Shown here: piece by piece, positions 14,203-37,850 of the stretch
How the letters are laid out: each line of letters begins with the position of its first letter
How positions within the stretch are numbered: the first letter of the stretch is position 1
NCBI RefSeq assembly: GCF_013315695.1
Contig: NZ_CP054353.1
Strand: one strand, 5' to 3'
DNA: 64,000 bases
DNA from: Escherichia coli
GTDB taxonomy: Bacteria > Pseudomonadota > Gammaproteobacteria > Enterobacterales > Enterobacteriaceae
Notes under the pieces: model-generated
What the model saw: only the letters and a program-made list of their open reading frames with translations
Databases searched by the model: none
What the model was told of the DNA's origin: nothing
Position numbers and translations under genes: made by a program

Positions 14203-15345
14203 ATGAAAATTGTCATTGCGCCAGACTCGTTTAAAGAGAGCTTAAGTGCAGAAAAATGTTGTCAGGCAATTAAAGCCGGGTTTTCGACCCTCTTTCCCGA
14301 TGCGCACTATATCTGTTTGCCGATAGCGGATGGCGGCGAAGGAACGGTGGATGCGATGGTCGCCGCGACGGGCGGCAACATCGTGACGCTTGAAGTCTGC
14401 GGGCCGATGGGCGAAACAGTGAATGCTTTTTATGGCCTTACCGGCGACGGGAAAACGGCGGTGATTGAGATGGCTGCGGCAAGCGGCCTGATGCTGGTCG
14501 CGCCTGAAAAGCGTAATCCGTTGCTGGCCTCCAGTTTTGGTACGGGGGAGTTAATTCGCCATGCGCTGGATAACGGCATTCGCCATATTATTCTCGGCAT
14601 TGGCGGCAGTGCGACGGTCGACGGCGGTATGGGCATGGCGCAGGCGCTCGGTGTGCGTTTCCTTGATGCCGACGGTCAGGTGCTGGCGGCTAACGGCGGC
14701 AATTTAGCGCGCGTGGCAAGCATTGAGATGAATGAATGCGATCCGCGTCTGGCGAACTGTCATATTGAAGTCGCATGTGACGTTGATAACCCGCTGGTAG
14801 GGGCACGCGGCGCGGCGGCGGTGTTTGGCCCGCAAAAAGGGGCAACGCCGGAGATGGTCGAAGAACTGGAACAGGGGCTGCAAAATTACGCCCGTGTTTT
14901 ACAACAGCTAACTGAAATCAACGTCTGCCAGATGGCGGGCGGTGGCGCGGCGGGCGGTATGGGCATTGCGGCGGAGGTATTCCTCAATGCGGATATTAAA
15001 CCGGGTATTGAGATTGTGTTGAATGCGGTCAATCTTGCGCAGGCGGTGCAGGGTGCAGCACTGGTGATCACCGGGGAAGGGCGCATCGATTCGCAAACGG
15101 CAGGTGGTAAAGCGCCGCTGGGCGTGGCGTCGGTGGCGAAGCAGTTTAATGTCCCGGTGATTGGGATTGCTGGCGTATTGGGTGATGGCGTGGAAGTGGT
15201 GCACCAGTACGGCATTGACGCGGTGTTCAGCATTTTGCCACGTCTGGCACCTTTAGCCGAAGTGCTCGCCAGCGGTGAAACCAATCTCTTCAACAGCGCA
15301 CGAAATATTGCCTGCGCCGGTGATGCTGCCAACTTACTGATTTAG
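14203..15345 (+). CDS. glxK: glycerate kinase; last codons and stop lie inside the IS1 left inverted repeat
   Basis: About 380 aa; ORF continues across the IS1 boundary at 15319 (…[10 protein letters not shown]). Confidence 0.75.
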
Positions 15346-15373
15346 TGTATGATGGTGTTTTTGAGGTGCTCCA

Positions 15374-15649
15374 GTGGCTTCTGTTTCTATCAGCTGTCCC
15401 TCCTGTTCAGCTACTGACGGGGTGGTGCGTAACGGCAAAAGCACCGCCGGACATCAGCGCTATCTCTGCTCTCACTGCCGTAAAACATGGCAACTGCAGT
15501 TCACTTACACCGCTTCTCAACCCGGTACGCACCAGAAAATCATTGATATGGCCATGAATGGCGTTGGATGCCGGGCAACAGCCCGCATTATGGGCGTTGG
15601 CCTCAACACGATTTTACGTCACTTAAAAAACTCAGGCCGCAGTCGGTAA
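15374..15649 (+). CDS. insA: IS1 InsA
   Basis: 91 aa zinc-finger/HTH protein, identical in both copies. Confidence 0.9.
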
Positions 15650-16071
15650 CCTCGCGCATACAGCCGGGCAGTGACGTCATCGTCTGCGCGGAAATGGACG
15701 AACAGTGGGGCTATGTCGGGGCTAAATCGCGCCAGCGCTGGCTGTTTTACGCGTATGACAGGCTCCGGAAGACGGTTGTTGCGCACGTATTCGGTGAACG
15801 CACTATGGCGACGCTGGGGCGTCTTATGAGCCTGCTGTCACCCTTTGACGTGGTGATATGGATGACGGATGGCTGGCCGCTGTATGAATCCCGCCTGAAG
15901 GGAAAGCTGCACGTAATCAGCAAGCGATATACGCAGCGAATTGAGCGGCATAACCTGAATCTGAGGCAGCACCTGGCACGGCTGGGACGGAAGTCGCTGT
16001 CGTTCTCAAAATCGGTGGAGCTGCATGACAAAGTCATCGGGCATTATCTGAACATAAAACACTATCAATAA
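15568..16071 (+). CDS. insB: IS1 InsB (transposase C-part, made as InsAB' by -1 frameshift)
   Basis: 167 aa ORF overlapping insA in the -1 frame. Confidence 0.85.
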
Positions 16072-16086
16072 GTTGGAGTCATTACC

Positions 16087-17618
16087 TAGATACCACAGGT
16101 TTCTGGCATGACGATTTTAATAACGCCACGCCGAACGATATTTGCGTGGCAATTCGTAGCGAAGCGGCGGATGCGGGGATCGCGCAGGCGGTTATGCAGC
16201 AGCTTGAAGAGGCGCTAAAACAACTGGCGCAGGGTTCAGGCAGCAGCCAGGCGTTGACGCAGGTGCGTCGCTGGGACAGTGCCTGTCAGAAATTACCCGA
16301 TGCCAGTCTGGCGCTGATTTCAGTGGCTGGTGAGTATGCGGCGGAGCTGGCGAACCAGGCGCTGGATCGCAACCTCAACGTGATGATGTTCTCCGATAAC
16401 GTCACGCTGGAAGATGAAATCCAACTTAAAACCCGCGCGCGGGAAAAAGGCTTGCTGGTGATGGGGCCGGACTGCGGTACATCGATGATTGCCGCCACGC
16501 CGCTGGCTTTTGCTAACGTGATGCCGGAAGGCAACATTGGCGTCATTGGCGCTTCCGGTACCGGGATTCAGGAGCTGTGCTCACAGATTGCGCTGGCAGG
16601 GGAGGGAATTACTCATGCGATTGGCCTTGGCGGGCGCGACCTCAGCCGTGAAGTGGGCGGCATCAGTGCGCTGACGGCGCTGGAAATGCTCAGTGCAGAC
16701 GAGAAAAGCGAAGTGCTGGCATTTGTTTCAAAACCACCTGCCGAAGCTGTGCGTCTGAAAATTGTTAATGCCATGAAAGCAACTGGCAAACCGACGGTGG
16801 CGCTGTTTTTAGGTTATACCCCGGCGGTGGCCCGCGACGAGAATGTCTGGTTTGCCTCCTCGCTGGATGAGGCCGCACGCCTGGCTTGTCTGCTTTCACG
16901 CGTCACTGCGCGACGTAACGCGATAGCGCCTGTCAGCAGCGGATTTATTTGCGGTTTGTATACCGGCGGTACGCTGGCTGCTGAAGCTGCGGGATTACTT
17001 GCCGGACACCTTGGCGTGGAAGCCGACGATACCCATCAACATGGCATGATGCTCGACGCCGACGGACATCAGATCCTCGACCTGGGCGATGATTTTTACA
17101 CCGTCGGGCGTCCCCATCCGATGATCGACCCGACCTTACGCAACCTGTTAATTGCCGATCTCGGCGCTAAACCGCAAGTGCGAGTGTTGCTGCTTGATGT
17201 GGTGATTGGCTTCGGTGCGACCGCCGATCCTGCCGCCTCGCTGGTGAGCGCCTGGCAAAAAGCCTGTGCCGCGCGTTCAGACAATCAACCACTGTATGCC
17301 ATTGCCACGGTGACAGGCACTGAACGTGACCCGCAATGCCGCTCGCAGCAAATCGCCACGCTGGAAGATGCGGGGATCGCGGTAGTGAGTTCGCTACCGG
17401 AAGCCACCTTGCTGGCTGCGGCGTTAATTCATCCGCTCTCGCCTGCCACACAGCAACACACACCGTCATTACTGGAAAACGTCGCCGTGATTAACATCGG
17501 ATTACGCAGCTTTGCGCTGGAGCTACAAAGCGCCAGCAAACCGGTTGTGCATTACCAATGGTCGCCAGTCGCCGGTGGCAATAAAAAACTGGCTCGTTTA
17601 TTAGAACGTTTGCAATAA
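16087..17618 (+). pseudogene. fdrA: fdrA-like acyl-CoA synthetase-family gene, 5' end removed by IS1
   Basis: Frame is open right up to the IS1 end with no start codon and no promoter; the listed ORF starts at an internal GTG (16146). Confidence 0.7.
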
Positions 17619-17627
17619 GGGGTTCCC

Positions 17628-18887
17628 ATGTTTACATCAGTGGCGCAAGCCAATGCTGCGGTTATCGAACAAATTCGTCGCGCTCGTCCACACTGGCTGG
17701 ATGTGCAACCGGCTTCTTCACTTATCAGCGAACTAAACAAGGGCAAAACACTGCTTCACGCCGGGCCGCCAATGCGCTGGCAGGAGATGACCGGACCCAT
17801 GAAAGGGGCGTGCGTGGGCGCATGTCTGTTCGAAGGCTGGGCGAAAGATGAAGCGCAGGCGCTGGCAATACTGGAGCAGGGGGAAGTGAACTTCATTCCT
17901 TGTCACCATGTGAATGCCGTCGGGCCAATGGGCGGCATTACTTCTGCCAGTATGCCGATGCTGGTGGTTGAGAACGTGACCGACGGCAACCGGGCGTACT
18001 GCAACCTCAACGAAGGTATCGGCAAAGTGATGCGTTTTGGCGCTTACGGCGAAGATGTCCTGACTCGCCATCGCTGGATGCGCGATGTGTTAATGCCAGT
18101 ATTAAGCGCGGCGCTGGGGCGCATGGAGCGCGGTATCGATCTCACCGCGATGATGGCACAGGGCATTACCATGGGCGATGAGTTCCATCAGCGCAACATT
18201 GCATCCTCAGCACTGTTGATGCGCGCGCTGGCCCCACAAATTGCTCGCCTCAATCACGATAAACAGCACATCGCGGAAGTGATGGATTTCCTCAGCGTGA
18301 CCGATCAGTTCTTCCTCAACCTCGCGATGGCTTACTGCAAGGCGGCGATGGATGCAGGCGCGATGATCCGCGCAGGCAGCATCGTCACGGCTATGACCCG
18401 CAACGGCAATATGTTCGGGATTCGGGTAAGCGGGCTGGGTGAACGCTGGTTTACTGCGCCTGTAAACACTCCGCAAGGTCTGTTTTTCACCGGCTTCTCG
18501 CAGGAGCAGGCGAACCCGGATATGGGCGATAGCGCGATTACCGAAACCTTTGGTATCGGTGGTGCGGCAATGATCGCAGCCCCTGGCGTAACACGCTTTG
18601 TCGGTGCGGGTGGCATGGAAGCGGCCAGAGCGGTATCTGAAGAGATGGCGGAAATCTTCCTTGAACGCAATATGCAGTTGCAGATCCCCGGCTGGGATTT
18701 CCAGGGCGCGTGCCTGGGGCTGGACATTCGTCGCGTGGTAGAAACCGGCATTACGCCACTCATCAATACCGGTATCGCCCATAAAGAGGCGGGGATCGGG
18801 CAGATTGGCGCAGGCACCGTGCGGGCACCGCTGGCGTGCTTTGAACAGGCGCTGGAAGCACTGGCTGCAAGCATGGGTATTGCTTGA
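17628..18887 (+). CDS. ylbE: DUF1116-family protein
   Basis: 419 aa; context after fdrA. Confidence 0.7.
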
Positions 18888-18897
18888 GGAACACGCA

Positions 18898-19713
18898 ATG
18901 ACAATCATCCATCCTCTGCTTGCCAGCCGTAGCGCACCGAATTATCGCCAGTCCTGGCGGTTAGCGGGCGTGTGGCGGCGGGCGATTAACCTGATGACGG
19001 AAAGCGGCGAACTGTTAACGCTGCATCGTCAGGGGAGTGGTTTCGGCCCCGGAGGATGGGTGCTTCGCCGCGCGCAATTCGATGCGTTATGCGGTGGATT
19101 ATGCGGCAATGAACGACCACAGGTTGTGGCTCAAGGCATTCGCCTCGGACGTTTCACGGTTAAACAGCCACAGCGTTATTGTTTGCTGCGTATTACGCCG
19201 CCTGCGCATCCTCAACCGCTTGCAGCTGCATGGATGCAACGCGCGGAGGAAACCGGGCTTTTCGGGCCACTGGCGATGGCGGCAAGCGATCCGCTGCCTG
19301 CTGAGTTACGCCAGTTTCGTCACTGTTTTCAGGCCGCGCTCAATGGCGTTAAGACCGACTGGCGGCACTGGCTGGGTAAAGGCCCAGGATTAACGCCAAG
19401 TCATGATGACACGCTGAGCGGAATGCTGCTGGCGGCCTGGTATTATGGCGCTTTAGATGCGCGCTCCGGTCGCCCGTTTTTTGCCTGTTCCGACAATCTT
19501 CAACTCGTTACCACAGCGGTGAGCGTCAGTTATTTACGTTATGCCGCGCAAGGATATTTCGCCTCGCCACTCCTGCACTTTGTTCATGCTCTGAGTTGCC
19601 CGAAACGTACCGCTGTTGCGATTGATTCGCTGCTGGTGCTGGGGCATACGTCAGGGGCAGATACGCTGCTGGGGTTCTGGCTTGGCCAACAATTATTACA
19701 AGGAAAACCATGA
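18898..19713 (+). CDS. ylbF: putative oxamate carbamoyltransferase subunit-like protein
   Basis: About 271 aa from [10 protein letters not shown]; context. Confidence 0.65.
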
Positions 19714-20603
19714 AAACACTGGTTGTGGCTCTTGGGGGCAACGCCTTACTCCAGCGCGGCGAAGCGCTGACGGCAGAAAATCAATATCGCAATATTGCCA
19801 GTGCTGTACCCGCGTTGACGCGCCTGGCCCGTTCTTATCGGCTGGCGATTGTTCACGGCAACGGGCCACAGGTGGGGCTGTTGGCGTTACAGAATCTGGC
19901 GTGGAAAGAGGTCGAACCGTATCCGCTGGATGTACTGGTGGCGGAAAGTCAGGGGATGATTGGCTATATGCTGGCGCAGAGCTTGAGCGCACAGCCGCAG
20001 ATGCCGCCTGTGACGACGGTGCTGACGCGCATTGAAGTTTCGCCTGATGATCCGGCGTTTTTGCAGCCAGAGAAATTTATCGGTCCGGTTTATCAGCCAG
20101 AAGAACAAGAGGCACTGGAAGCGGCTTACGGCTGGCAGATGAAACGTGATGGTAAATACTTGCGCCGGGTGGTGGCATCTCCGCAACCGCGTAAAATTCT
20201 CGACAGCGAAGCCATTGAGTTGTTGCTCAAAGAGGGGCATGTGGTGATTTGCAGTGGCGGCGGCGGTGTGCCTGTGACGAAAGACGGGGCAGGGAGTGAA
20301 GCAGTGATTGATAAAGATCTCGCCGCTGCGTTGCTCGCCGAGCAGATTAATGCCGATGGACTGGTGATCCTCACCGATGCTGATGCGGTATATGAAAACT
20401 GGGGAACGCCGCAGCAACGTGCCATTCGCCGTGCCACACCGGATGAGTTAGCGCCATTTGCCAAAGCCGATGGTTCGATGGGGCCGAAGGTAACGGCGGT
20501 GAGTGGCTATGTCAGAAGCCGTGGTAAACCCGCGTGGATTGGGGCGTTATCGCGGATTGAAGAGACGCTGGCGGGCGAAGCGGGGACTTGTATTTCGCTG
20601 TAG
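19710..20603 (+). CDS. ybcF: carbamate kinase-like protein
   Basis: 297 aa; amino-acid kinase fold motifs (ALGGNAL…). Confidence 0.8.
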
Positions 20604-20609
20604 TGATGG

Positions 20610-20825
20610 GCACCAGGCAATTGGCACATCTAGCCTGATGCGATGCTGGCGCGTCTTATCAGGTCTACAGGCGGTGTCGGAACGGTAGGCCGGATAAGGC
20701 GTTCACGCCGCATCCGGCAATCGGCACACCATGCCTGATGCGATGCTGGCGCATCTTATCAGGCCTACAGTCGGTGTTGGAACGGTAGGCCTGATAAGGC
20801 GTTCACGCCGCATGCGGCAAGAAAA
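20610..20825. repeat. two tandem REP/BIME units of about 100 bp
   Basis: Near-identical units, each with GCCTGATGCGATGCTGGCGC and GGATAAGGCGTTCACGCCGCATCCGGCA. Confidence 0.75.
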
Positions 20826-20835
20826 TGAGCATCAA

Positions 20836-21903
20836 TTAACTGAACTTGCTCTGCGCCCACATCACGCCGCTGGCATACTCTGGCGGCAGCAGCGGGATTA
20901 AGGCTTCCAGCGTCGCGGTCAGACGCGATGTGTCGCTGTCGGTCAAATTCAGATGCCCCACTTTACGCCCCGGACGGACTTCTTTGTCGTACCAGTGCAG
21001 ATGCACCAGCGGCAGTTTCAGCCAGTCATAATTCACATCGCTACCAATCAGGTTGATCATCACCGACGGACTATTCACTACTGGTTGCGGTAACGGCAGA
21101 TCGGTAATCGCCCGCAGATGCAGCTCAAACTGGCTGATGCTGGCACCGTTTTGTGTCCAGTGACCGCTGTTATGCACACGCGGAGCCAGTTCGTTGATCA
21201 GCAGACCTTGCGGGGTGACAAAACACTCCATCGCCATCACGCCCACATAGCCCAGCTCCTGCATAATCGCCGACAGCATCTCTTCGGCCTGCGCCTGCTG
21301 CTGCGCGTTGGCCTGCGGGAAAGCGACGCTGGTGCGCAAAATACCGTCCTGATGCAGGTTATGCGTCAGCGGATAAAACACGGTGCTACCATCAAAGCCG
21401 CGCGCGCCAACCAGCGACACTTCACCAGAGAAGTTTATGCCCTGCTCGACAATACATTCGCCGTAGCATTCAGCCGGTAACTGTTCGGTTTCATCGGCGC
21501 GTAAACGCCATTGACCGCGTCCGTCATAGCCACCAGTGCGACGCTTAACAATCGCCAGCTCACCTAAACGATCAAACACCGCCGGCCACTCGCTGCGATC
21601 GGCAAGTAACTGCCACGGTGCGGTCGGCAGGTGAAGCTTGTCGAAAAGCTGCTTCTGAGTCAGACGGTCAGCAATAATCGGGAACACATCGCGGTTCACA
21701 AAGGCCGGATGGCGCGCCAGCTCGCGGGTTAATGCGGTTTCCGGCCAGCGTTCGATCTCAGCGGTAATCACACTTTGTTGAAAAGGCACCGCCGCCGGTT
21801 CAGCGTCCAGCCCGACTGGCCAGACAGCAATGCCTAACGGTTCGCCTGCCTGACGCAGCATACGGCCTAACTGCCCGTTACCGAGGACGCAAACCTGTTT
21901 CAT
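20836..21903 (-). CDS. purK: N5-carboxyaminoimidazole ribonucleotide synthase
   Basis: 355 aa ATP-grasp protein; overlaps purE. Confidence 0.9.
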
Positions 21904-22409
21904 GCCGCACCTCGCGGGTCCGGGTTTTCCAGCACTTCGTCAGTCTGTGCTTTGCGCCAGTCATTCAGACGCTGGTGTAGCTCTTTATCATGAGTTGCAA
22001 GAATTTGTGCTGCCAGTAACGCCGCGTTTGCCGCGCCAGCTTTACCAATCGCCAGCGTACCCACCGGAATGCCGCGTGGCATTTGTACGATAGAGTAGAG
22101 GCTATCGACACCGCTCAGTGCGGCGCTCTGTACTGGCACGCCCAGCACTGGCACCAGCGTTTTGGCGGCAATCATGCCAGGCAGGTGCGCTGCGCCGCCT
22201 GCGCCCGCAATAATTACCTGATAACCGTTCTCTTCGGCGCTTTCGGCGAAGCTGAACAGTTTATCGGGGGTGCGGTGAGCAGAAACCACTTCAACGTGGT
22301 GCGGGACATTCAGGATTTCGAAGATTTCGGCGGCGAACTGCATGGTAGCCCAGTCGCTTTTGGACCCCATCACGATGGCGACACGCGCCGGATTATTGCG
22401 GGAAGACAT
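21900..22409 (-). CDS. purE: N5-CAIR mutase
   Basis: 169 aa from [19 protein letters not shown]. Confidence 0.9.
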
Positions 22410-22526
22410 GCGTCTTAAAACTCCTGTGGTGCACAACTCTCGGCTTTAGAGGGCACAGAGAATAGCACGGAAAGAGAGCAAGGAAAACGGTTGCGTGGCT
22501 GTGAAATCAGCAAAGTTGCGGGTTTT

Positions 22527-23249
22527 TTAAAAAGGAAAATGAATCAGCTCAACGTCATCCGCCGTGACTTTTACCATTGAACCTTCCGTATGCCAGGCAC
22601 CCAGCACGACGCGAAAAGCAGGTTGCTGATTGGCGATAAGTTCATGTACCGCCGGGCGATGGGTATGTCCGTGGATCAGCCATTGCACCTGATGTTTTTC
22701 CATCGCACTGACCACCGCGTTTTGGTTAACGTCCATGATCGCCAGCGATTTACTGCTGTTGGCTTCTTTGCTGTTCGCTCGCATTCGCGCGGCAATGCGT
22801 TTGCGCACAAACAACGGCAGGGCGAGGAATAGCGTTTGCAGCCAGGGTTTGTGGACTTTGGCGCGAAAAGCCTGATAACCGGCGTCATCGGTGCACAGCG
22901 TGTCGCCATGCATAATCAATACCCGGCGACCATACAGTTCGAGCACCTTTTCTTCCGGCAATAACGTCATGCCGCTTTCACGGGCAAAGCGTTTGCCGAG
23001 CAGAAAATCACGGTTGCCATGAATGAAATAACAGGGAACGCCGGAATCGGACACCGCTTTGATCGCTGCCGCCATCTGGCGATGGAGTGGGTTGGGATCG
23101 TCGTCGCCAATCCACGCTTCAAACAGATCGCCAAGAATATACAGCGCGTCGGCATTGCGGGCTTCCCCCGCTAAAAAACGCAGAAAACCGGCGGTGATCG
23201 CCGGTTCTTCCACGCAGAGATGAAGATCTGCAATAAAGAGTGTCGCCAC
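22527..23249 (-). CDS. lpxH: UDP-2,3-diacylglucosamine hydrolase
   Basis: 240 aa calcineurin-like phosphoesterase ([11 protein letters not shown]…, GNRD motif). Confidence 0.85.
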
Positions 23250-23251
23250 GA

Positions 23252-23746
23252 TTACTCGCTAACGGTCACGCTTTCAATGATAACGTCTTCTTTTGGCACG
23301 TCCTGGTGCATACCGCTACGACCGGTTGCAACACCTTTGATTTTGTCTACCACGTCCATGCCTTCAACCACTTCAGCAAACACGCAGTAACCCCAACCTT
23401 GCAGGCTTTCGCCAGAGAAGTTCAGGAAGTCGTTATCAACTACGTTGATGAAGAACTGTGCAGTTGCAGAGTGCGGTGCCTGAGTACGGGCCATTGCCAG
23501 CGTACCACGGGTATTTTTCAGACCGTTATTGGCTTCGTTTTTGATCGGGTCTTTGGTGGTTTTTTGCTTCATGCCCGGTTCAAAACCGCCGCCCTGAATC
23601 ATAAAGCCGTTGATTACACGGTGGAAAATGGTGTTGTTGTAAAAACCTTCGCGGCAGTAGTCCAGGAAGTTTTTAACTGTTTCAGGTGCTTTATCGTCAA
23701 AAGTTTTGATGACAATATCGCCGTGATTGGTGTGGAAAGTAACCAT
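23252..23746 (-). CDS. ppiB: peptidyl-prolyl cis-trans isomerase B
   Basis: 164 aa cyclophilin ([16 protein letters not shown]…). Confidence 0.9.
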
Positions 23747-23919
23747 TTTTGCATCCTGTTCCGTTTGATTGGTGCTTCAACCCGGTTCGGGTCATATATA
23801 GGGTGGTGTTATAGCATAACCGCACGATCGGATCATCACGCAATGTATGCTGATTCGCGCGGGAAATATGGGTATTATACGCAACTCAATTACCCACACA
23901 TGTCTAAACGGAATCTTCG

Positions 23920-25305: not shown

Positions 25306-25316
25306 TTGCGCTATTG

Positions 25317-25340
25317 CCGGATGCGAGTTTTCGCATCCGG
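25317..25340. terminator. GC-rich hairpin between convergent cysS and ybcI
   Basis: CCGGATGCGA-GTTTT-CGCATCCGG perfect stem. Confidence 0.45.
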
Positions 25341-25862: not shown

Positions 25863-25969
25863 GATGGTCGCTTCGGCAAAATGTCGATGCTATCAGCATG
25901 GATGAACGGGGCGTAGAGGGCAACAGTCTGAAAAGAGAACCGGCCTGTTGTTACAGGCCGGGAAAGGGA

Positions 25970-26182: not shown

Positions 26183-26183
26183 G

Positions 26184-28064: not shown

Positions 28065-28282
28065 TCAAAACCACGTTGTTTTGAATTATATATCACGTCT
28101 TATAACAAAGTAATGTACCGGTTGTCTGAAGCGGTATGGTGGCAATGTAAATCGAAATCACGTTCACTTTGTATCATGCCGCTTTATTAAATGAAAAGGG
28201 AATAATGTGTGTAAGAAACCAAAGCAATCATTTCTTTATACTCCTTATTTTTGCCGTCAGGAATACACAAGGCGTATTAACT

Positions 28283-28975
28283 ATGATGACTAAAATAAAG
28301 TTATTGATGCTCATTATATTTTATTTAATCATTTCGACCAGCGCCCATGCTGCCGGAGGGATCGCATTAGGTGCCACGCGTATTATTTATCCCGCTGATG
28401 CTAAACAGACTGCGGTATGGATTAGAAATAGTCATACCAATGAGCGCTTTCTGGTCAATTCGTGGATTGAAAACAGCAGCGGTGTAAAAGAAAAGTCATT
28501 CATCATTACACCGCCACTGTTTGTTAGTGAACCCAAAAGCGAAAATACTTTGCGTATTATTTACACCGGTCCACCGCTGGCGGCAGATCGTGAGTCTCTG
28601 TTCTGGATGAATGTTAAGACGATCCCTTCGGTAGATAAAAATGCATTGAACGGCAGGAATGTTTTGCAACTGGCGATTTTATCGCGCATGAAATTATTTC
28701 TCCGTCCAATTCAATTACAAGAATTACCCGCAGAAGCGCCGGACACACTCAAGTTTTCGCGATCCGGTAACTATATCAATGTTCATAATCCATCACCTTT
28801 TTATGTCACCCTGGTTAACTTGCAAGTGGGCAGCCAAAAACTGGGGAATGCTATGGCTGCACCCAGAGTTAATTCACAAATTCCCTTACCCTCAGGAGTG
28901 CAGGGAAAGCTGAAATTTCAGACCGTTAATGATTATGGTTCAGTAACCCCGGTCAGAGAAGTGAACTTAAACTAA
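28283..28975 (+). CDS. sfmC: periplasmic fimbrial chaperone
   Basis: 230 aa from [10 protein letters not shown]; PapD-like. Confidence 0.8.
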
Positions 28976-29005
28976 CCGAATCATCTGACAATATCAGAGC
29001 TAATT

Positions 29006-31615
29006 ATGAAAATACCCACTACTACGGATATTCCGCAGAGGTATACCTGGTGTCTGGCCGGAATTTGTTATTCATCTCTTGCCATTTTACCCTCCTTTTT
29101 AAGCTATGCGGAAAGTTATTTCAACCCGGCATTTTTATTAGAGAATGGCACATCCGTTGCTGATTTATCGCGCTTTGAGAGAGGTAATCATCAACCTGCG
29201 GGTGTGTATCGGGTGGATCTCTGGCGTAATGATGAGTTCATTGGTTCACAGGATATCGTATTTGAATCGACGACAGTAAATACAGGTGATAAATCAGGTG
29301 GGTTAATGCCTTGTTTTAACCAGGCACTCCTTGAACGAATTGGCCTTAATAGCAGTGCATTCCCCGAGTTAGCCCAGCAGCAAAATAATAAATGCATCAA
29401 TTTACTGAAAGCTGTACCTGATGCCACAATTAACTTTGATTTTGCAGCGATGCGCCTGAACATCACTATTCCTCAGATAGCGTTGTTGAGTAGCGCTCAC
29501 GGTTATATTCCGCCTGAAGAGTGGGATGAAGGTATTCCTGCTTTACTCCTGAATTATAATTTCACCGGTAACAGAGGTAATGGTAACGATAGCTATTTTT
29601 TTAGTGAACTCAGCGGGATTAATATTGGCCCGTGGCGTTTACGCAACAATGGTTCCTGGAACTATTTTCGCGGAAATGGATATCATTCAGAACAGTGGAA
29701 TAATATTGGCACCTGGGTACAGCGCGCCATTATTCCGCTGAAAAGTGAACTGGTAATGGGAGACGGTAATACAGGGAGTGATATTTTCGATGGCGTTGGA
29801 TTTCGAGGTGTACGGCTTTATTCTTCCGATAATATGTATCCTGATAGCCAGCAGGGGTTTGCTCCAACGGTACGTGGGATTGCCCGTACGGCGGCCCAGC
29901 TAACGATTCGGCAAAATGGTTTTATTATCTATCAAAGCTATGTTTCCCCCGGCGCTTTTGAAATTACAGATTTGCACCCGACATCTTCAAATGGCGATCT
30001 GGACGTCACCATCGACGAGCGCGATGGTAATCAGCAGAATTACACGATTCCGTATTCAACAGTGCCAATTTTACAACGCGAAGGGCGTTTCAAATTTGAC
30101 CTGACGGCGGGCGATTTTCGTAGCGGTAATAGTCAGCAATCGTCGCCTTTCTTTTTTCAGGGCACGGCACTCGGCGGTTTACCACAGGAATTTACTGCCT
30201 ACGGCGGGACGCAATTATCTGCCAATTACACCGCCTTTTTGTTAGGGCTGGGGCGCAACCTCGGGAACTGGGGCGCAGTGTCGCTGGATGTAACGCATGC
30301 GCGCAGTCAGTTAGCCGACGACAGTCGTCATGAGGGGGATTCCATTCGCTTCCTCTATGCGAAATCAATGAACACTTTCGGCACCAATTTTCAGTTAATG
30401 GGTTACCGCTATTCGACACAAGGTTTTTATACCCTTGATGATGTTGCGTATCGTCGAATGGAGGGGTACGAATATGATTACGATTATGACGGTGAGCATC
30501 GCGATGAACCGATAATCGTGAATTACCACAATTTACGCTTTAGTCGTAAAGACCGTTTGCAGTTAAATATTTCACAATCACTTAATGACTTTGGCTCGCT
30601 TTATATTTCTGGTACCCATCAAAAATACTGGAATACTTCGGATTCAGATACCTGGTATCAGGTGGGGTATACCAGCAGCTGGGTTGGCATCAGTTATTCA
30701 CTCTCATTTTCGTGGAATGAATCTGTAGGGATCCCCGATAACGAACGTATTGTCGGACTTAATGTTTCAGTGCCTTTCAATGTTCTGACCAAACGTCGCT
30801 ACACCCGGGAAAATGCGCTCGACCGCGCTTATGCCTCCTTTAACGCCAACCGTAACAGCAACGGGCAAAATAGCTGGCTGGCAGGCGTTGGTGGGACCTT
30901 ACTGGAAGGCCACAACCTGAGTTATCACGTAAGCCAGGGCGATACCTCGAATAATGGGTATACGGGCAGCGCCACGGCAAACTGGCAGGCCGCTTACGGT
31001 ACGCTGGGGGTCGGGTATAACTACGACCGCGATCAACATGACGTTAACTGGCAGCTGTCTGGCGGTGTGGTCGGGCATGAAAATGGTATAACGCTGAGCC
31101 AGCCTTTAGGGGATACCAATGTTTTGATTAAAGCGCCAGGCGCAGGCGGTGTACGCATTGAAAATCAAACTGGAATTTTAACCGATTGGCGCGGCTATGC
31201 GGTGATGCCGTATGCCACGGTTTATCGGTATAACCGTATCGCGCTTGATACCAATACGATGGGGAATTCCATCGATGTTGAAAAAAATATTAGCAGCGTT
31301 GTGCCGACGCAAGGCGCGTTGGTTCGTGCCAATTTTGATACCCGCATAGGCGTGCGGGCGCTCATTACCGTTACCCAGGGCGGAAAACCGGTGCCGTTTG
31401 GATCACTGGTACGGGAAAACAGTACCGGAATAACCAGTATGGTGGGTGATGACGGGCAAGTTTATTTAAGCGGTGCGCCATTGTCTGGTGAATTACTGGT
31501 TCAGTGGGGAGACGGCGCGAACTCACGCTGCATTGCGCACTATGTATTGCCGAAGCAAAGCTTACAGCAAGCCGTCACTGTTATTTCGGCAGTTTGCACA
31601 CATCCTGGCTCATAA
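29006..31615 (+). CDS. sfmD: fimbrial outer-membrane usher
   Basis: 869 aa. Confidence 0.88.
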
Positions 31616-31627
31616 AGGAAATTATCA

Positions 31628-32635
31628 ATGAAGATAATCTGCAGATTATTATTGGCGATGGCATGTTTGTGGTTAACAAACATATCCTGGGCTACTGTTT
31701 GTGCAAATAGTACTGGCGTAGCAGAAGATGAACACTATGATCTCTCAAATGTCTTTAATAGCACCAATAACCAGCCAGGGCAGATTGTTGTTTTACCGGA
31801 AAAATCCGGCTGGGTAGGTGTATCAGCAATTTGTCCACCCGGCACGCTGGTGAATTATACATACCGTAGTTATGTCACCAACTTTATTGTTCAGGAAACT
31901 ATCGATAATTATAAATATATGCAATTAAATGATTATCTATTAGGTGCGATGAGTCTGGTTGATAGCGTGATGGATATTCAATTCCCTCCGCAAAATTATA
32001 TTCGTATGGGAACAGATCCTAACGTTTCGCAAAACCTTCCGTTCGGGGTGATGGATTCTCGTTTGATATTTCGTTTAAAGGTTATTCGTCCCTTTATTAA
32101 CATGGTGGAGATCCCCAGACAGGTGATGTTTACCGTGTATGTGACATCAACGCCTAACGATCCGTTGGTTACACCTGTTTATACCATTAGTTTTGGTGGC
32201 CGGGTTGAAGTACCGCAAAACTGCGAATTAAATGCCGGGCAAATTGTTGAATTTGATTTTGGTGATATCGGCGCATCGTTATTTAGTGCGGCAGGGCCGG
32301 GGAATCGACCAGCTGGTGTCATGCCGCAAACCAAGAGCATTGCGATCAAATGTACGAATGTTGCTGCGCAGGCTTATTTAACAATGCGTCTGGAAGCCAG
32401 TGCCGTTTCTGGTCAGGCGATGGTGTCGGACAATCAGGATTTAGGTTTTATTGTGGCCGATCAGAACGATACGCCGATCACGCCTAACGATCTCAATAGC
32501 GTTATTCCTTTCCGTCTGGATGCAGCTGCGGCAGCCAATGTCACACTTCGCGCCTGGCCTATCAGTATTACCGGTCAAAAACCGACCGAAGGGCCGTTTA
32601 GCGCGCTGGGGTATTTACGCGTCGATTATCAATGA
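31628..32635 (+). CDS. sfmH: fimbrial adhesin-like subunit
   Basis: 335 aa with signal peptide. Confidence 0.75.
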   Translation: MKIICRLLLAMACLWLTNISWATVCANSTGVAEDEHYDLSNVFNSTNNQPGQIVVLPEKSGWVGVSAICPPGTLVNYTYRSYVTNFIVQETIDNYKYMQLNDYLLGAMSLVDSVMDIQFPPQNYIRMGTDPNVSQNLPFGVMDSRLIFRLKVIRPFINMVEIPRQVMFTVYVTSTPNDPLVTPVYTISFGGRVEVPQNCELNAGQIVEFDFGDIGASLFSAAGPGNRPAGVMPQTKSIAIKCTNVAAQAYLTMRLEASAVSGQAMVSDNQDLGFIVADQNDTPITPNDLNSVIPFRLDAAAAANVTLRAWPISITGQKPTEGPFSALGYLRVDYQ

Positions 32636-32645
32636 GGTACGGAGA

Positions 32646-33161
32646 ATGAGAAGAGTACTCTTTAGCTGTTTCTGCGGGCTACTGTGGAGTTCCAGTGGAT
32701 GGGCAGTTGACCCTTTAGGAACGATTAATATCAATTTGCACGGTAACGTTGTTGATTTCTCCTGTACCGTAAACACAGCGGATAAGGATAAGACGGTAGA
32801 TTTAGGCAGATGGCCTACGACACAATTACTGAGCGCTGGCGATACCACGGCACTCGTCCCTTTTAGCCTGCGGCTGGAGGGATGTCCTCCGGGTTCAGTT
32901 GCGATTTTATTTACGGGAACGCCGGCATCTGATGCCAACCTGCTGGCTCTGGATGATCCCGCAATGGCACAAACCGTCGCCATCGAATTACGTAATAGCG
33001 ATCGCTCCCGGCTCGCACTGGGGGAGGCGAGCTCGACTGAGGAAGTTGATGCAAATGGCAATGTCACACTAAACTTTTTTGCCAATTATCGAGCGTTAGC
33101 CAGCGGTGTTCAGCCTGGTGTGGCGAAAGCGGATGCGATATTTATGATCAATTATAATTAA
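32646..33161 (+). CDS. sfmF: fimbrial minor subunit
   Basis: About 171 aa from MRRVLFSCFCGLLWSSSGWA. Confidence 0.75.
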   Translation: MRRVLFSCFCGLLWSSSGWAVDPLGTININLHGNVVDFSCTVNTADKDKTVDLGRWPTTQLLSAGDTTALVPFSLRLEGCPPGSVAILFTGTPASDANLLALDDPAMAQTVAIELRNSDRSRLALGEASSTEEVDANGNVTLNFFANYRALASGVQPGVAKADAIFMINYN

Positions 33162-33163
33162 TA

Positions 33164-33796
33164 TTATATTAATTCATATAATTTGGCGTAGTCGATAAGC
33201 TCTACAATTGAATGCAAACCTAGCTTGCCATAAATATTAGATTTATGTGCACTAACTGTTTTATTGCTAAGTAATAACTTATCGGCAATTTCTTTATTAG
33301 ATAATCCGCTAACCAGATAACGTAATATGGTTACTTCACGATTAGATAGCACCGTGACCGTTGAACTATTCGTACTGCATTTATTGCTTTTTATATAGTT
33401 GAGCGTTTCGCTGGGAAAAAAAGTGTATCCGGAGAGGATCATCTGAACGGCATGAAAAATATCATTCTGATCATTGCATTTACTGACAAAACCGTTAGCA
33501 CCAGCTTGTACCGCTCTGCCAGCATAAAAGCATTCTGATTTCGATGATAAAAATAATACTTTCACTGTACTCTGGATTTGTTTGATCCTTTTCAGGAAGG
33601 TAAAACCGTCTGTTCCGGGCAAGTCTATATCCATAATGATTAAATCAACAGGACGGGTTCGGAGATAATCGATGGTTATGCGATAATCATCCGTTTTCAG
33701 GACAATTTGCAATTCATTGTTTTTTTGCAACAGAACTTCAATAGACATTCTGATGATAGGATGAGTATCCATAATGATCACCGACGTTGGTTTCAT
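33164..33796 (-). CDS. fimZ: LuxR-family response regulator of fimbrial expression
   Basis: About 210 aa; receiver domain plus C-terminal LuxR HTH. Confidence 0.8.
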   Translation of the reverse strand: MKPTSVIIMDTHPIIRMSIEVLLQKNNELQIVLKTDDYRITIDYLRTRPVDLIIMDIDLPGTDGFTFLKRIKQIQSTVKVLFLSSKSECFYAGRAVQAGANGFVSKCNDQNDIFHAVQMILSGYTFFPSETLNYIKSNKCSTNSSTVTVLSNREVTILRYLVSGLSNKEIADKLLLSNKTVSAHKSNIYGKLGLHSIVELIDYAKLYELI

Positions 33797-34037
33797 AGTT
33801 ACCAGTCTCATTGGATCGGACAATTTTCCGTTAGGGCGGGAAATTGTACTTGATACATGAAAATACGGGTTTTCTTGATTCAGACGCGCAGCGGTGTGCG
33901 TTTGTTTGCCGCTATAACGAAATAAATCAGAAAATCAGACGCGGTCGTTCACTTGTTCAGCAACCAGATCAAAAGCCATTGACTCAGCAAGGGTTGACCG
34001 TATAATTCACGCGATTACACCGCATTGCGGTATCAAC

Positions 34038-34114
34038 GCGCCCTTAGCTCAGTTGGATAGAGCAACGACCTTCTAAGTCGTGGGCCGCAGGTTCGAATCC
34101 TGCAGGGCGCGCCA
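34038..34114 (+). tRNA. argU: tRNA-Arg (anticodon TCT in CTTCTAAG loop)
   Basis: GCGCCCTTAGCTCAGTTGGATAGAGC…GGTTCGAATCC…GCGCGCCA cloverleaf elements; integrase immediately downstream. Confidence 0.9.
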
Positions 34115-34129
34115 TTACAATTCAATCAG

Positions 34130-35293
34130 TTACGCCTTCTTTATATCCTCCATAATTCCACAGTGGGACATATTTGGGACATTATCACCAAAAATGTCGT
34201 CTATTTTCCTTGCATGCTCTGTCAAATGATTAGGCGCAAGGTGAGCATACCTACGAACCATTTCTATGGACTCCCATCCGCCCATTTCCTGAAGCACAGA
34301 TAATGGGACGCCTGACTGGATCAGCCAGCTTGCCCAGGTGTGTCTGAGGTCATGGAAACGGAAATCTTCAATTCCTGCACGACGACAAGCTGATAGCCAT
34401 GATGTCTTGCTGTCGATGCGCATCTTCCTGACCGCAGGCGTTGATGTTCCATCTGCTCGCTTAGTCGCCTTGGTATGTACAAACACCCATTTGTGATGCT
34501 TGCCTATTTGATCACGCAACACTTTACAGGCGGTATCGTTCAGCGCCACACCAATGGCGCGGTTTGATTTGCTCTCTTCTGGATTCACCCAGGCAACTCG
34601 TCGCTGCATGTCGATTTGTTGCCATTCCAGATTTATGATGTTCGACTTTCTCAGACCAGTTGCCAGCGCAAACTTGACGACAGATTTCAGTGGTTCGGGG
34701 CACTCATCAATAAGGCGTTTTGCTTCCTCCTTTTCCAGCCATCTGACTCGCTTGTTTCTGACCGCTGGTATCTTGATGACAGGCGCTTTTTCCAGCCACT
34801 TCCAGTCGCGTTCTGCAGCACGGAGAATGGCCTTTATCATGGCAAGATGCTTTGCCTTTGTCTGAGTTGATACTGGCTTTGGTTCATAAACAGGCGGTTC
34901 TTTACCTTTCCTGATGGCGGCCTGAACTTTCTGTTTCCATATTTCTTTCGTCTTTCTGTTATGCATTCTGCTTACAGCAGAGTAAATCTTTGCCTCCGAG
35001 ATATCTTTAAGCCTTATACCCTCAAAATGTTCAAGCCAGAACTCAATCCGGCTTTTATCTGAATCGAGAGATTTTTTATCAGCTTTTTCCTCAAGCCATC
35101 TTAGGCAGGCCTCTTCAAAAGTGACATCAGGTAAATCCCCTAGCTTTTCTACTCGCCAGAGTTCTGCTTTTCGCTTGTCGTGCAACTCCTGAGCTTGCCG
35201 CTTGTCCTTTGTGCCAAGAGATTCCTTAATTCGTTTCCCGCCCGGGAGCGAATACGAGGCATACCATATTTCATTTCTGCGGAAGAGTGACAT
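34130..35293 (-). CDS. intD: prophage tyrosine integrase (DLP12-type, argU-specific)
   Basis: 387 aa; C-terminal R..HxxR..Y catalytic region ([10 protein letters not shown]… ; …RRYAHL). Confidence 0.88.
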
Positions 35294-35523
35294 TTTCTTT
35301 CCTCTGTTATGCCATCACCCGCGCTCACCTGGACAGTATGCAGCGGAGACTGAAGCGCCGCAATGCAAGCTTGCCGTGTTGTGAGGTAAGGAGATTTTGG
35401 CTTGGTTGGATCTTTACGTGTTGCCTGTAGGCGGCCTGTTCGTATCCAGTTGGTGGCGGTTGGTCTGGATATCTTAAGAAACTGACAGGCCTCATCGAGT
35501 GTGAGGCTGTATGGCTCCATTAT
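35149..35523 (-). CDS. AlpA/Xis-like excisionase/DNA-binding protein (overlaps int 5' end; start uncertain)
   Basis: [34 protein letters not shown] typical of AlpA-family excisionases. Confidence 0.55.
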
Positions 35524-35825
35524 TTCACCTCTTGCTGTGTCATTGTTGAAAAATGGATACCAGCTCGTTGCTGCCAGACGATCCAACCGAGAGTCATATC
35601 CCATGCCATGTATTCGTTATCGCCGTTTTTTACTCTCCGACGATCTACTAAGTCACCGAAACGCTTTTCCATGAATAATTCATAGGCTTCGCGTTCATCT
35701 GGCTCTACTTCCAGAGATACGAGTGCGATTTCATAAGCACGGCGCTCAATATCGTCTCGAACCTCTAGGCTGCTGATTCGTTCTTTGATTTCTTTAATCA
35801 GTTCTTTATTGGTAAATGTGGTCAT
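35520..35825 (-). CDS. hypothetical prophage early-left protein (101 aa)
   Basis: Translationally coupled (overlapping start/stop) in the int-xis operon. Confidence 0.45.
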   Translation of the reverse strand: MTTFTNKELIKEIKERISSLEVRDDIERRAYEIALVSLEVEPDEREAYELFMEKRFGDLVDRRRVKNGDNEYMAWDMTLGWIVWQQRAGIHFSTMTQQEVK

Positions 35826-36187
35826 TATGCTCCAGCCTCCGGTGCTTTTGGCATTACTGCCCAGTGAGTGATATTGACGTTTTCAAGGTCCCCGACCTGA
35901 AATGTCCACTGCCATTCTCCGGTTTCTTTTTGTCCCCAGGTGTACCAGAGAGAACGCCAGCCAATCAGCCAGCCTTCTCCATTAGCATCAAATAACAGAA
36001 CACTTTCATTTGCTGGTGGCAGTTCAGCTGACACTGGTATTATTTTGTTTTCCAGTGCCGCACATTTAGCTTCAAGCGCGTCGAATTTACGTAACAGGTA
36101 CTCAGCATTTGTTTCATTCACTTTCAGATCTCGCGGTACACATTTCCCGCGAAGAAACCCTTCCATTTCGAAAACATTCATGCGCAT
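35825..36187 (-). CDS. DUF551-like prophage protein (120 aa)
   Basis: Trp-rich C-terminus ending …THWAVMPKAPE; coupled to neighbours. Confidence 0.45.
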   Translation of the reverse strand: MRMNVFEMEGFLRGKCVPRDLKVNETNAEYLLRKFDALEAKCAALENKIIPVSAELPPANESVLLFDANGEGWLIGWRSLWYTWGQKETGEWQWTFQVGDLENVNITHWAVMPKAPEAGA

Positions 36188-36741
36188 TTGCGTAACTCCG
36201 ATAAATCGTTAAAACGTTCCATAAACATCCCGTAGGCATGACCCGGTGCCAGTGGAATCACGTTGAACATCTCTGTTGCCGGGATGCCTTCCAGTACAGG
36301 CCAGAAAGAGCCATCATCAAGCCCGAGATCGCGGCGTTCGGTTGCCAGCATGATGAGATCGGCATATTTCACGGGTGTACTCATAACTGGGGGTAACCCG
36401 TATTTCTCACGGATTACGGCGTCTATTTTTTCTTCCATCCGTTTATAGTCAGGAAGAAGGCGTTTCAGTGGTGCGGGAATGTCCTGGCAATACGCTTCTG
36501 TTGCATCATGCATTAACGCTTCAAAAGCAAATTCCTGCGGCACCAGCTGGCTGCAAAGAACCGCATGTTGGGCGACGCTGTAGAAGTGCGAAAGATGACC
36601 GGCAAAGCGACAGATATTTGAAAGGGAAACCGCGATATCGTTAATATCGATGTCGTCTTTATTTATCTTGTCATAATAAAAATGCTTCCCGGAAAAAGTT
36701 TTAATAAATGACATTTTGTTCTCCACGTATATGCACTGCAC
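36178..36741 (-). CDS. HD-domain phosphohydrolase (YfbR-like 5'-nucleotidase family)
   Basis: H…HD metal-binding signature (…SVAQHAVL… ; …ALMHDATEAY…). Confidence 0.6.
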   Translation of the reverse strand: MQCIYVENKMSFIKTFSGKHFYYDKINKDDIDINDIAVSLSNICRFAGHLSHFYSVAQHAVLCSQLVPQEFAFEALMHDATEAYCQDIPAPLKRLLPDYKRMEEKIDAVIREKYGLPPVMSTPVKYADLIMLATERRDLGLDDGSFWPVLEGIPATEMFNVIPLAPGHAYGMFMERFNDLSELRKCA

Positions 36742-36839
36742 CGCGCTGAATTCTGGTAAAAGGAAGCCCTCACCATCCGGTGATTATTGAGTTAATTACG
36801 TTTCCATAAATGCCCCCGCAGGGGCATTTGCAGTAATGA

Positions 36840-37041
36840 AATCAGGCGGTGAAAGTACCAATAAAGGTTTCTACTTTGCTGTCTTTGAATTTCTCAACAA
36901 GCAGATCACGAAATTCGTTAGCCATTTCTTCCTGCACCGCTTCCAGCTGAATAATGCGCAGAACCAGTACAGGACGATCGCCAGTGATAATGCTGAGGCG
37001 TAATTTAAACGGACGTTCTTTCAGACCTTCAAACGGAACGC
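36840..37041 (-). pseudogene. 3' fragment of a prophage early gene, truncated by IS1
   Basis: Minus-strand frame open from the IS1 boundary to a stop at 36840 (…[39 protein letters not shown]); no start codon. Confidence 0.45.
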
Positions 37042-37096
37042 GGTGATGCTGCCAACTTACTGATTTAGTGTATGATGGTGTTTTTGAGGTGCTCCA

Positions 37097-37372
37097 GTGG
37101 CTTCTGTTTCTATCAGCTGTCCCTCCTGTTCAGCTACTGACGGGGTGGTGCGTAACGGCAAAAGCACCGCCGGACATCAGCGCTATCTCTGCTCTCACTG
37201 CCGTAAAACATGGCAACTGCAGTTCACTTACACCGCTTCTCAACCCGGTACGCACCAGAAAATCATTGATATGGCCATGAATGGCGTTGGATGCCGGGCA
37301 ACAGCCCGCATTATGGGCGTTGGCCTCAACACGATTTTACGTCACTTAAAAAACTCAGGCCGCAGTCGGTAA
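37097..37372 (+). CDS. insA: IS1 InsA
   Basis: Identical to 15374..15649. Confidence 0.9.
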
Positions 37373-37794
37373 CCTCGCGCATACAGCCGGGCAGTGACGT
37401 CATCGTCTGCGCGGAAATGGACGAACAGTGGGGCTATGTCGGGGCTAAATCGCGCCAGCGCTGGCTGTTTTACGCGTATGACAGGCTCCGGAAGACGGTT
37501 GTTGCGCACGTATTCGGTGAACGCACTATGGCGACGCTGGGGCGTCTTATGAGCCTGCTGTCACCCTTTGACGTGGTGATATGGATGACGGATGGCTGGC
37601 CGCTGTATGAATCCCGCCTGAAGGGAAAGCTGCACGTAATCAGCAAGCGATATACGCAGCGAATTGAGCGGCATAACCTGAATCTGAGGCAGCACCTGGC
37701 ACGGCTGGGACGGAAGTCGCTGTCGTTCTCAAAATCGGTGGAGCTGCATGACAAAGTCATCGGGCATTATCTGAACATAAAACACTATCAATAA
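37291..37794 (+). CDS. insB: IS1 InsB
   Basis: Identical to 15568..16071. Confidence 0.85.
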
Positions 37795-37850
37795 GTTGGA
37801 GTCATTACCTTCTAATTGATATGCAATTGTTTACTAAAAGTTATTAAAAA

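Follow-up and report, generated by a model that had tools for sequence, protein, structure and literature searches.

The classical IS1-promoted adjacent deletions are those at gal/chlD, reportedly described by Reif and Saedler in 1975, in which, as at the two loci considered here, an intact IS1 stays behind with its original DNA on one side and DNA from a few kb further along on the other, and the target duplication is lost with no microhomology. Direct pairs of IS1 also surround segments of about 10-23 kb in Tn9, the r-determinant of R100/NR1 and the argF segment of K-12, and exchange between the two IS1 copies can excise such units or amplify them in tandem. A further point of comparison is the K-12 prophage DLP12, a lambdoid element at argU from which IS activity removed essential control functions while porin and lysis genes were kept; most of its late genes have been lost, and IS3 and IS5 insertions are present. 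Both IS-adjacent deletions and IS-IS recombination are recognised causes of missing target duplications, and in the Lenski long-term lines copies of IS150 that lack a duplication have been explained by deletion beside a pre-existing copy (PMC11708052). For IS1 itself, replicative deletions are attributed to Turlan and Chandler (1995, EMBO J 14:5410), as cited in passages of PMC1550401 and PMC12428005.

The window analysed here, a stretch of 64,000 nucleotides from the Escherichia coli contig NZ_CP054353.1, contains two IS1 copies, at 15319-16086 (copy 1, + strand) and 37042-37809 (copy 2, + strand). The original prediction held that these are identical 768-bp elements in the same orientation, that neither has a 9-bp target duplication and that their flanks do not match crosswise, and all of this is borne out. 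Indeed, the copies agree at 768/768 positions, in direct orientation and with a start-to-start spacing of 21,723 bp, and the identity between them reaches just 1 base past each end. Copy 1 lies between GCCTGCGCC and TAGATACCA and copy 2 between ACGGAACGC and TTCTAATTG, exactly the flanks that had been noted; read further out, copy 1 is followed by TAGATACCACAGG, and copy 2 is preceded by CAAACGGAACGC and followed by TTCTAATTGATATGC. Direct repeats of 8-9 bp beside either copy were sought within 25 bp and not found, no k-mer of 7 or more bases is common to both ends of one copy over that distance, and the crosswise comparison of the flanks of copies 1 and 2 gave no common k-mer of 5 or more bases. 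Imperfect or offset target duplications were likewise rejected, there being no common 7-9-mers within 25 bp of the ends; the sole 5-6-mer common to the flanks, ACCTTC, overlaps the IS1 terminus itself.

The elements are bona fide IS1 of the IS1A type. They match K-12 IS1A at 767/768 positions, their terminal inverted repeats (GGTGATGCTGCCAACTTACTGAT and GGTAATGACTCCAACTTATTGAT) match at 18/23 positions, and each carries insA, insB' and an A6C frameshift site at IS1 position 307, at which a reconstructed -1 frameshift yields an InsAB' of 232 aa scoring 245 bits against NCBIfam NF033558 (cut-off 100). Both the length of InsAB' and the A6C site agree with the published description of IS1, and IS1A is one of two IS1 copies that transpose in K-12, its transposition being mainly replicative (PMC12428005). 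One nucleotide from IS1A and with InsAB' intact, the window copies are of the consensus, active type. The 9-bp duplication expected of the IS1 family, absent in the window, is found at the same two sites in close relatives.

Those relatives are two complete clinical E. coli genomes, isolate AF3 and strain MSB1_4I, to which the window is 99.98% identical, and the comparison with related genomes that had been proposed as a check defines what was lost at each site. An origin in Shigella or E. coli B, which the IS1 load and the region near ompT had suggested, was rejected in view of this match. In AF3, the glxK site is empty and without IS1, while the argU prophage holds a simple IS1 insertion with the 9-bp duplication ACGGAACGC, its junctions being AACGGAACGC on the left and ACGGAACGCATTT on the right, and the remaining part of the interrupted DUF2303 gene follows the IS1 after the duplicated ACGGAACGC. 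In MSB1_4I, a simple insertion with the duplication GCCTGCGCC lies at the 3' end of glxK (junctions TTGCCTGCGCC and GCCTGCGCCATTAAA), with allE-allC-allD-fdrA intact beside it; its prophage already carries the deletion next to copy 2 (deletion 2), and the deletion next to copy 1 (deletion 1) is absent. The window has both. Its left flanks are identical to the progenitor left flanks at both loci (the AF3 prophage site and the MSB1_4I glxK site), and its right flanks are found in the progenitors on the same strand, 3,724 bp (deletion 1) and 9,340 bp (deletion 2) past the IS1 end. The claim that each copy sits at a deletion or rearrangement junction thus resolves into deletions in both cases, and the further claim of two separate deletions holds because MSB1_4I carries deletion 2 only, its glxK IS1 still being a simple insertion. 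Since each locus has a progenitor that shares its left junction and still shows the 9-bp duplication, insertion preceded deletion, and since the three backbones are 99.98% identical, the deletions are recent events inside one clone. A reading of the locus as divergent, suggested by a coverage-times-identity ranking with a best value of 97.7%, was rejected; that value reflects pieces joined together in unrelated strains with IS1 nearby.

Deletion 1 spans 3,715 bp and removed the tail of glxK, allE, allC, allD, the allD-fdrA control region and the first 136 nt of fdrA. What is left of glxK (14203-15318, +) keeps codons 1-372 of 381 by the ORF list and by tblastn against K-12 GlxK (residues 1-372); the K-12 alignment stops at 543003, 30 nt ahead of the glxK stop, and the reading frame continues 27 nt into IS1. 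The alignment resumes at 546816, within K-12 fdrA, which starts at 546680, so that fdrA' (16087-17618, +; residues 46-555 by tblastn) lacks 45 codons and with them its start codon, as well as its promoter. Among complete E. coli genomes, allE-allC-allD are kept in at least 97%; by inference, the deletion has cost this strain the ureidoglycine/oxalurate branch of allantoin breakdown.

Deletion 2, of 9,331 bp, fell within the prophage at argU, a tRNA-Arg(UCU) gene at 34038-34114 (+; ARAGORN and Rfam tRNA) that forms the attachment site. Beyond it lie the integrase (34130-35293, -; 99% identical to K-12 IntD by ORF and tblastn), the early-left genes homologous to yfdT/yfdS/yfdR (35520-36741, -; called from ORFs and the RefSeq annotation of identical MSB1_4I and AF3 DNA) and a C-terminal remnant of the yfdQ-like DUF2303 gene that was the original IS1 target (36841-37041, -; annotated as partial DUF2303 in MSB1_4I and AF3). 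The deletion took the immunity genes, including the repressor and cro, the replication and nin genes, and the Q antiterminator gene quuD except for its last 10 nt, which include the stop codon and are its only remnant (37810-37819, +); the distal end point corresponds to L006 position 19151, where quuD is annotated at 18777-19160. Retained from 37810 to 64000, and extending beyond the window end, is the late region of a lambdoid prophage, aligned to the annotated AF3 and MSB1_4I prophages, with a porin gene (38008-39090, -), lysis genes, terminase, portal, head, tail, lom and tail fibre. Compared with DLP12, which it resembles in type, in its argU site and 99%-identical integrase, and in having kept porin and lysis genes while losing control functions, this prophage has suffered its damage through a single IS1-anchored deletion of 9.3 kb, and its whole late morphogenetic region survives. 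After deletion 2 it is predicted to be non-inducible and locked in place, with its late genes transcriptionally orphaned.

We think that the best account, to which we give a probability of about 0.68, is that of two independent two-step IS1 events, insertion followed by a transposase-made adjacent deletion, in an IS1-rich E. coli clone. The first step is directly observed: IS1 inserted normally at two sites, in the prophage DUF2303 gene and 30 nt before the glxK stop codon, each time with its 9-bp duplication. In the second, the resident IS1, staying intact and in place, lost the DNA adjoining its IRR; this outcome can be read directly, and the most likely mechanism is intramolecular replicative transposition of IS1. 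In such an event InsAB' would join the IS1 ends to a target within the same molecule, a few kb distant (an adjacent, or replicative, deletion), giving a product in which one chromosomal IS1 is joined precisely to the new target, while a non-replicating circle holding the DNA in between, together with the replicated IS1 and the other copy of the duplication, would be released and then lost. The features of an adjacent deletion are present at both loci, where the IS is intact to the last base of its termini, one flank is that of the progenitor, the other comes from further along the same strand and the duplication has gone, and both deletions extend rightward from an intact IRR end. Slippage at microhomology was considered and rejected, the distal end points having zero bases in common with either the IS1 end or the flank next to it. 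There is no difference in kind from the classical IS1 deletions; what distinguishes the present case is that these are natural isolates in which both progenitor states are preserved, and that the role of the transposase is a probable one. It differs from the IS150 case in that IS150 belongs to the IS3 family, moves by copy-out-paste-in and was caught in real-time events (PMC11708052), whereas the IS1 events are reconstructed from three related genomes.

The transposase step has to be inferred because RecA recombination between two direct IS1 copies gives the same sequence outcome. On that account, a second IS1 in the same orientation entered at the distal site, at nt 136 of fdrA or at the 3' end of quuD, and a RecA-dependent crossover excised the interval. 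This predicts the observed sequence exactly, IS-IS recombination is an established route to missing duplications (PMC11708052), and with at least 40 IS1 matches per chromosome in MSB1_4I and AF3, against a median of about 10, new IS1 insertions should be frequent in this lineage. In addition, IS1 ends lie 30-590 bp from the fdrA end point in other strains, and IS1 also occurs near quuD, which makes both good IS1 target regions. However, the account needs two events per locus rather than one, four altogether, and none of 5,426 complete E. coli genomes has a second IS1, with its own duplication, at either distal end point; AF3 and MSB1_4I have none there either, and MSB1_4I, whose fdrA is free of IS1, stands just one step before deletion 1. 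As these are the only two close relatives, a short-lived intermediate with two IS1 copies may easily have escaped notice. On balance we regard recombination as the less probable alternative, if one with real substance. A second IS1 of this kind would have had the left junctions AAAGCGTTATTAGATACCA-IS1 and GCTAATAATTCTAATTG-IS1, with an expected duplication of TAGATACCA at fdrA nt 136 and of TTCTAATTG at the end of quuD.

Much less probable is an assembly artefact, in which the assembler merged two neighbouring IS1 copies or jumped through the repeat, and so lost 3.7 kb that do lie between glxK and fdrA. The right junction of copy 1, from IS1 into fdrA' (J1R), does occur in the window only, with 0 other genomes among the 5,426, and neither the truncated FdrA (490 aa) nor the GlxK-IS1 fusion (380 aa) gave a record when looked up by exact sequence. 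Against this, a collapse would require a second IS1 precisely in fdrA, which is seen in no genome, J1R is base-precise at the IS1 terminus, and 3/4 of the window's IS1 junctions are reproduced in independent complete assemblies; deletion 2, an event of the same type, is confirmed by MSB1_4I, the only one of the 5,426 genomes with the right junction of copy 2 (J2R). Scarcely credible, finally, are the remaining explanations: that IS1 entered a break in a single step, with DNA lost and no duplication ever made, that the region was inverted or translocated, or that a Tn9-like composite transposon inserted here. Missing duplications taken alone are compatible with these, and one-step events have been proposed for other ISs (PMC11708052), but at both loci the progenitors share the window's left junction and carry a 9-bp duplication, and all flanks lie in the order and orientation found in K-12 and AF3. 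As for a composite, the mismatch between the outer flanks GCCTGCGCC and TTCTAATTG shows that the unit did not arrive as a block.

The 20,955 bp between the copies (16087-37041) are indeed ordinary chromosome in its native order, as judged from the K-12 and MSB1_4I alignments. This segment is colinear with K-12 546816-566073 at 97.6%, which leaves no room for inversion or translocation, and shows zero differences from MSB1_4I. It runs from fdrA' through ylbE, ylbF, ybcF, purK, purE, lpxH, ppiB, cysS, ybcI, ybcJ, folD, sfmACDHF, fimZ, argU and intD to four prophage early-left genes, and the K-12 homologues tested, ylbE to intD, are without exception full length and free of stops, so that purEK, lpxH, cysS, folD, the sfm operon and argU are enclosed, as had been anticipated, and intact. 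Two flanking IS1 are therefore present as in a composite transposon, but a block insertion with a common 9-bp duplication and a foreign passenger are lacking, the passenger and both outer flanks being colinear with K-12 and AF3. Unlike Tn9, the r-determinant and the argF segment, this is native chromosome in its native place, with no common duplication on its outer flanks, and its excision would take lpxH, cysS and folD. The direct IS1 pair is a by-product of two unrelated insertions and no transposed composite element.

The genes lpxH, cysS and folD are essential in K-12, and their loss is expected to be lethal here too. The expectation that the arrangement should be stable thus stands with respect to deletion; it does not extend to duplication or amplification, since unequal IS1-IS1 exchange could duplicate or amplify the 21.7-kb unit. 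No amplification or movement of the unit is seen in the two relatives, MSB1_4I and AF3. A tandem duplication would create a junction in which IS1 is preceded by CAAACGGAACGC and followed by TAGATACCACAGG.

It is tempting to look further, and to imagine a clone in an early, Shigella-like IS1 expansion, in which a rightward ratchet of insertion and then deletion strips dispensable functions; the three isolates, with about 1 SNP per 5-10 kb between them, would show its successive steps at two loci within 22 kb. On this view IS1 would hit glxK-fdrA repeatedly in E. coli at large, and the 21.7-kb unit (argU, folD, purEK, cysS, lpxH) could serve as a reversible amplification cassette worked by unequal IS1-IS1 exchange. 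We offer this broader picture as speculation that is probably wrong, at least as a whole. The IS1-driven gene loss is real but textbook, and adds nothing to known IS1 biology. Its value is that natural isolates show cleanly how an IS copy loses its target duplication, and that the survival of both 'before' states in sister genomes makes insertion and deletion separable in time. For the source strain, the two deletions explain the missing allE-allC-allD and the permanent disabling of the argU prophage, and they draw attention to a 21.7-kb IS1-bracketed unit for which duplication is possible and deletion should be lethal.

The window is Escherichia coli chromosome and runs colinear with K-12 MG1655, with window 2439-15318 (selU to glxK) corresponding to K-12 530125-543003, and window 16087-35388 (fdrA' to the integrase end of the argU prophage) to K-12 546816-566073; beyond the second IS1 lie DLP12-like porin, lysis and packaging genes. 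As originally predicted, the two IS1 copies, at 15319-16086 on the glxK side and 37042-37809 on the argU prophage side, are direct repeats of 768 bp, both on the + strand, and a repeat scan and direct comparison found them identical at 768/768 positions, with identity ending one base beyond each terminus. They differ from K-12 IS1A at position 444 only, their terminal inverted repeats match at 18/23 positions, and they carry insA and insB' frames with an A6C slippery site, where a -1 shift would give a 232-aa InsAB' (reconstructed) that scores 245 bits against NCBIfam NF033558 (cut-off 100 bits). The same anatomy is set out in PMC12428005, and on these features we identify the element as IS1 of the IS1A type.

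The glxK-side copy is flanked by GCCTGCGCC and TAGATACCA and the prophage-side copy by ACGGAACGC and TTCTAATTG. Over the 25 bp next to each copy, its left and right flanks have no 7-9-mer in common, and the crosswise comparison yielded no common stretch of 5 bases or more, so that the claim of missing 9-bp duplications and of flanks that do not match crosswise is exact. The K-12 reference IS1A (locus L010, 19796-20563) likewise lacks matching 9-bp flanks when 12 bases per side are compared.

Two complete RefSeq genomes, MSB1_4I (NZ_LR898874.1; rectal swab, Australia) and AF3 (NZ_OZ547117.1; blood culture, UK), are nearly the same clone as the window, their backbones showing 3 differences in 15.5 kb left of the first copy and 0-2 in the 21 kb between the copies. 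This clone is unusually rich in IS1, since each relative has at least 40 matches in its chromosome against an E. coli genome median of about 10. Elsewhere in the backbone, the window lacks the 7.3-kb rhsD element that K-12 carries between ybbP and selU (522838-530124); window 2213-2438 holds only REP/BIME-type repeats there (Rfam naRNA4 2289-2366, ES036 2243-2285). Between ybcF and purK (20610-20820) stand two tandem 100-nt BIME/naRNA4-type units, 90% alike, with a third copy, 69% similar, at 2311-2410.

At the glxK site, AF3 has no IS1, and glxK, allE, allC, allD and fdrA are all intact. MSB1_4I carries IS1 at the window's exact left junction with the 9-bp duplication GCCTGCGCC on both sides, and it still has intact allE, allC, allD and fdrA; the window's right flank, TAGATACCA, is located 3,724 bp past the end of its IS1. 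The deletion thus defined removed 3,715 bp of the IS-free chromosome of AF3 (3,812 bp in K-12): the last 30 nt of glxK, whose frame now enters IS1 and terminates in ...GDAANLLI, then allE, allC, allD, the allD-fdrA intergenic region and the first 136 nt of fdrA. With no allE, allC or allD, and with fdrA deprived of its start and promoter, this strain should lack the ureidoglycine-to-oxalurate/oxamate branch of allantoin use. Such loss is uncommon: of 5,426 complete genomes, 5,282 keep the segment with a coverage of at least 80%.

Unrelated E. coli have independently acquired IS1 in the glxK-fdrA interval (loci L003, L004 and L005). In strain 1008S19 it is simply inserted in allC and flanked by the duplication CGATATGCG; in Ec1120 an IS1 that lacks a duplication stands where allE-allD and the start of fdrA are missing; 14EC007 has IS1 inside allD, also without a duplication. 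In 24 genomes the right end of IS1 (IRR) lies 30-590 bp upstream of the point where fdrA joins IS1 in the window, spread over roughly a dozen different positions, and the surroundings of the divergent allD/fdrA promoters may be a hot region for IS1.

At the prophage site it is AF3 that preserves the earlier state, a simple insertion in a DUF2303 (yfdQ-like) gene with the duplication ACGGAACGC and the same left junction as the window. The right flank shared by the window and MSB1_4I, TTCTAATTG, is located 9,340 bp past the end of the AF3 IS1, a distance made up of 9,331 bp of prophage and the second copy of the 9-mer. By the AF3 annotation, this deletion took the rest of the DUF2303 gene, yfdP, two small genes, a LexA-family repressor (ymfK-like), a cro-like HTH gene, ymfL, DUF4222, an HTH (replication-region) gene, perC, a Dam-type methylase, a second LexA-family gene, rusA, kilA-N, DUF968 and quuD minus its last 10 nt. 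It left the integrase, three early-left genes and all of the late region, with its porin, lysis, terminase, head, tail, lom and tail-fibre genes. Since repressor, early promoters, replication genes and Q were lost together, this DLP12-like lambdoid prophage would be neither inducible nor able to express its late operon from pR', and is probably now a fixed, defective element.

The porin gene (nmpC/ompC-like, 38008-39090, - strand) is intact about 200 bp from the IRR end, whereas its K-12 DLP12 counterpart is interrupted by IS5. Differences bunch in the terminase, portal and head genes at 45000-52300 (66 against MSB1_4I, 87 against AF3, compared with about 1 per 5-10 kb in the chromosomal backbone), a pattern suggestive of recombination in patches with other lambdoid prophages. 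The tail-fibre gene at 63107-63583 contains 189-nt tandem repeats (42-nt sub-period) with units 83% identical. The AF3 prophage IS1 (locus L006) is one base off the same-site copy in the window and MSB1_4I, at IS1 position 401 (equivalent to window 37442), owing to a private mutation or else to conversion between IS1 copies.

Each IS1 thus first inserted in the ordinary way, and the DNA adjoining its IRR end was deleted afterwards, with the element itself left intact; the proposal that both copies sit at deletion junctions is borne out by progenitors with the same left junctions and 9-bp duplications. The two deletions, as had been proposed, are separate events, because MSB1_4I carries the prophage deletion without the other. 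The three genomes are consistent with prophage insertion (AF3), then prophage deletion and glxK insertion (MSB1_4I), then the glxK-side deletion (window). When 5,426 complete E. coli genomes were searched for each junction, taken as 100 nt of IS1 joined to 100 nt of flanking DNA, the DUF2303-IS1 junction matched exactly in AF3 and MSB1_4I, the glxK-IS1 and IS1-quuD-end junctions in MSB1_4I only, and the IS1-fdrA' junction in no genome; the glxK-side deletion is therefore private to the window's strain. Only at this last junction is an assembly artefact conceivable, and we regard it as very improbable.

How were these deletions made? Their end points are exact to the base at the IS1 terminus and the distal end points have no bases in common with the proximal sequences, which counters slippage or microhomology-mediated joining, while colinearity and the unmatched outer flanks rule out inversion, translocation or insertion of a composite-transposon block. 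A one-step insertion with deletion is ruled out by the progenitor genomes. Two routes yield exactly the observed product. Intramolecular replicative transposition, the classical adjacent deletion of IS1, probably made both deletions (a probability of about 0.68): the IS1 ends would attack a target elsewhere on the same molecule, one copy would remain joined to the target, and the interval would depart on a circle carrying the other. Turlan and Chandler reportedly described such replicative deletions by IS1 in 1995 (cited in PMC1550401). For this route a single event at each locus is enough, and it involves no unseen intermediate; chromosomal IS1 transposition is mainly replicative (PMC12428005), and adjacent deletion is a recognised cause of missing duplications (PMC11708052). 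Insertion of a second same-orientation IS1 at the distal site, followed by homologous recombination, would end identically, but it requires two events per locus and an intermediate with no trace in the collection, a second IS1 at either distal end point being absent from all 5,426 genomes; we think it the less likely of the two routes.

Between the copies, ylbE, ylbF, ybcF, purK, purE, lpxH, ppiB, cysS, ybcI, ybcJ, folD, sfmACDHF, fimZ and intD are full length without stops relative to their K-12 homologues, and argU is present. As lpxH, cysS and folD are essential in K-12, an IS1-IS1 crossover deleting the interval should be lethal. To that extent the predicted stability stands, but it is only part of the picture: between sister chromosomes the same crossover would produce a tandem duplication that is viable, a behaviour known from other segments bracketed by IS1 (Tn9, the r-determinant and argF). 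No duplication of the interval is seen in the window, MSB1_4I or AF3.

The finding is real, its original interpretation is correct, and it is ordinary: these are standard IS1-anchored deletions, with nothing beyond known biology. Where PMC11708052 proposes one-step IS-plus-rearrangement events, this locus went through insertion and then deletion, and the survival of both progenitor states in sister genomes makes it a tidy natural illustration of that sequence.
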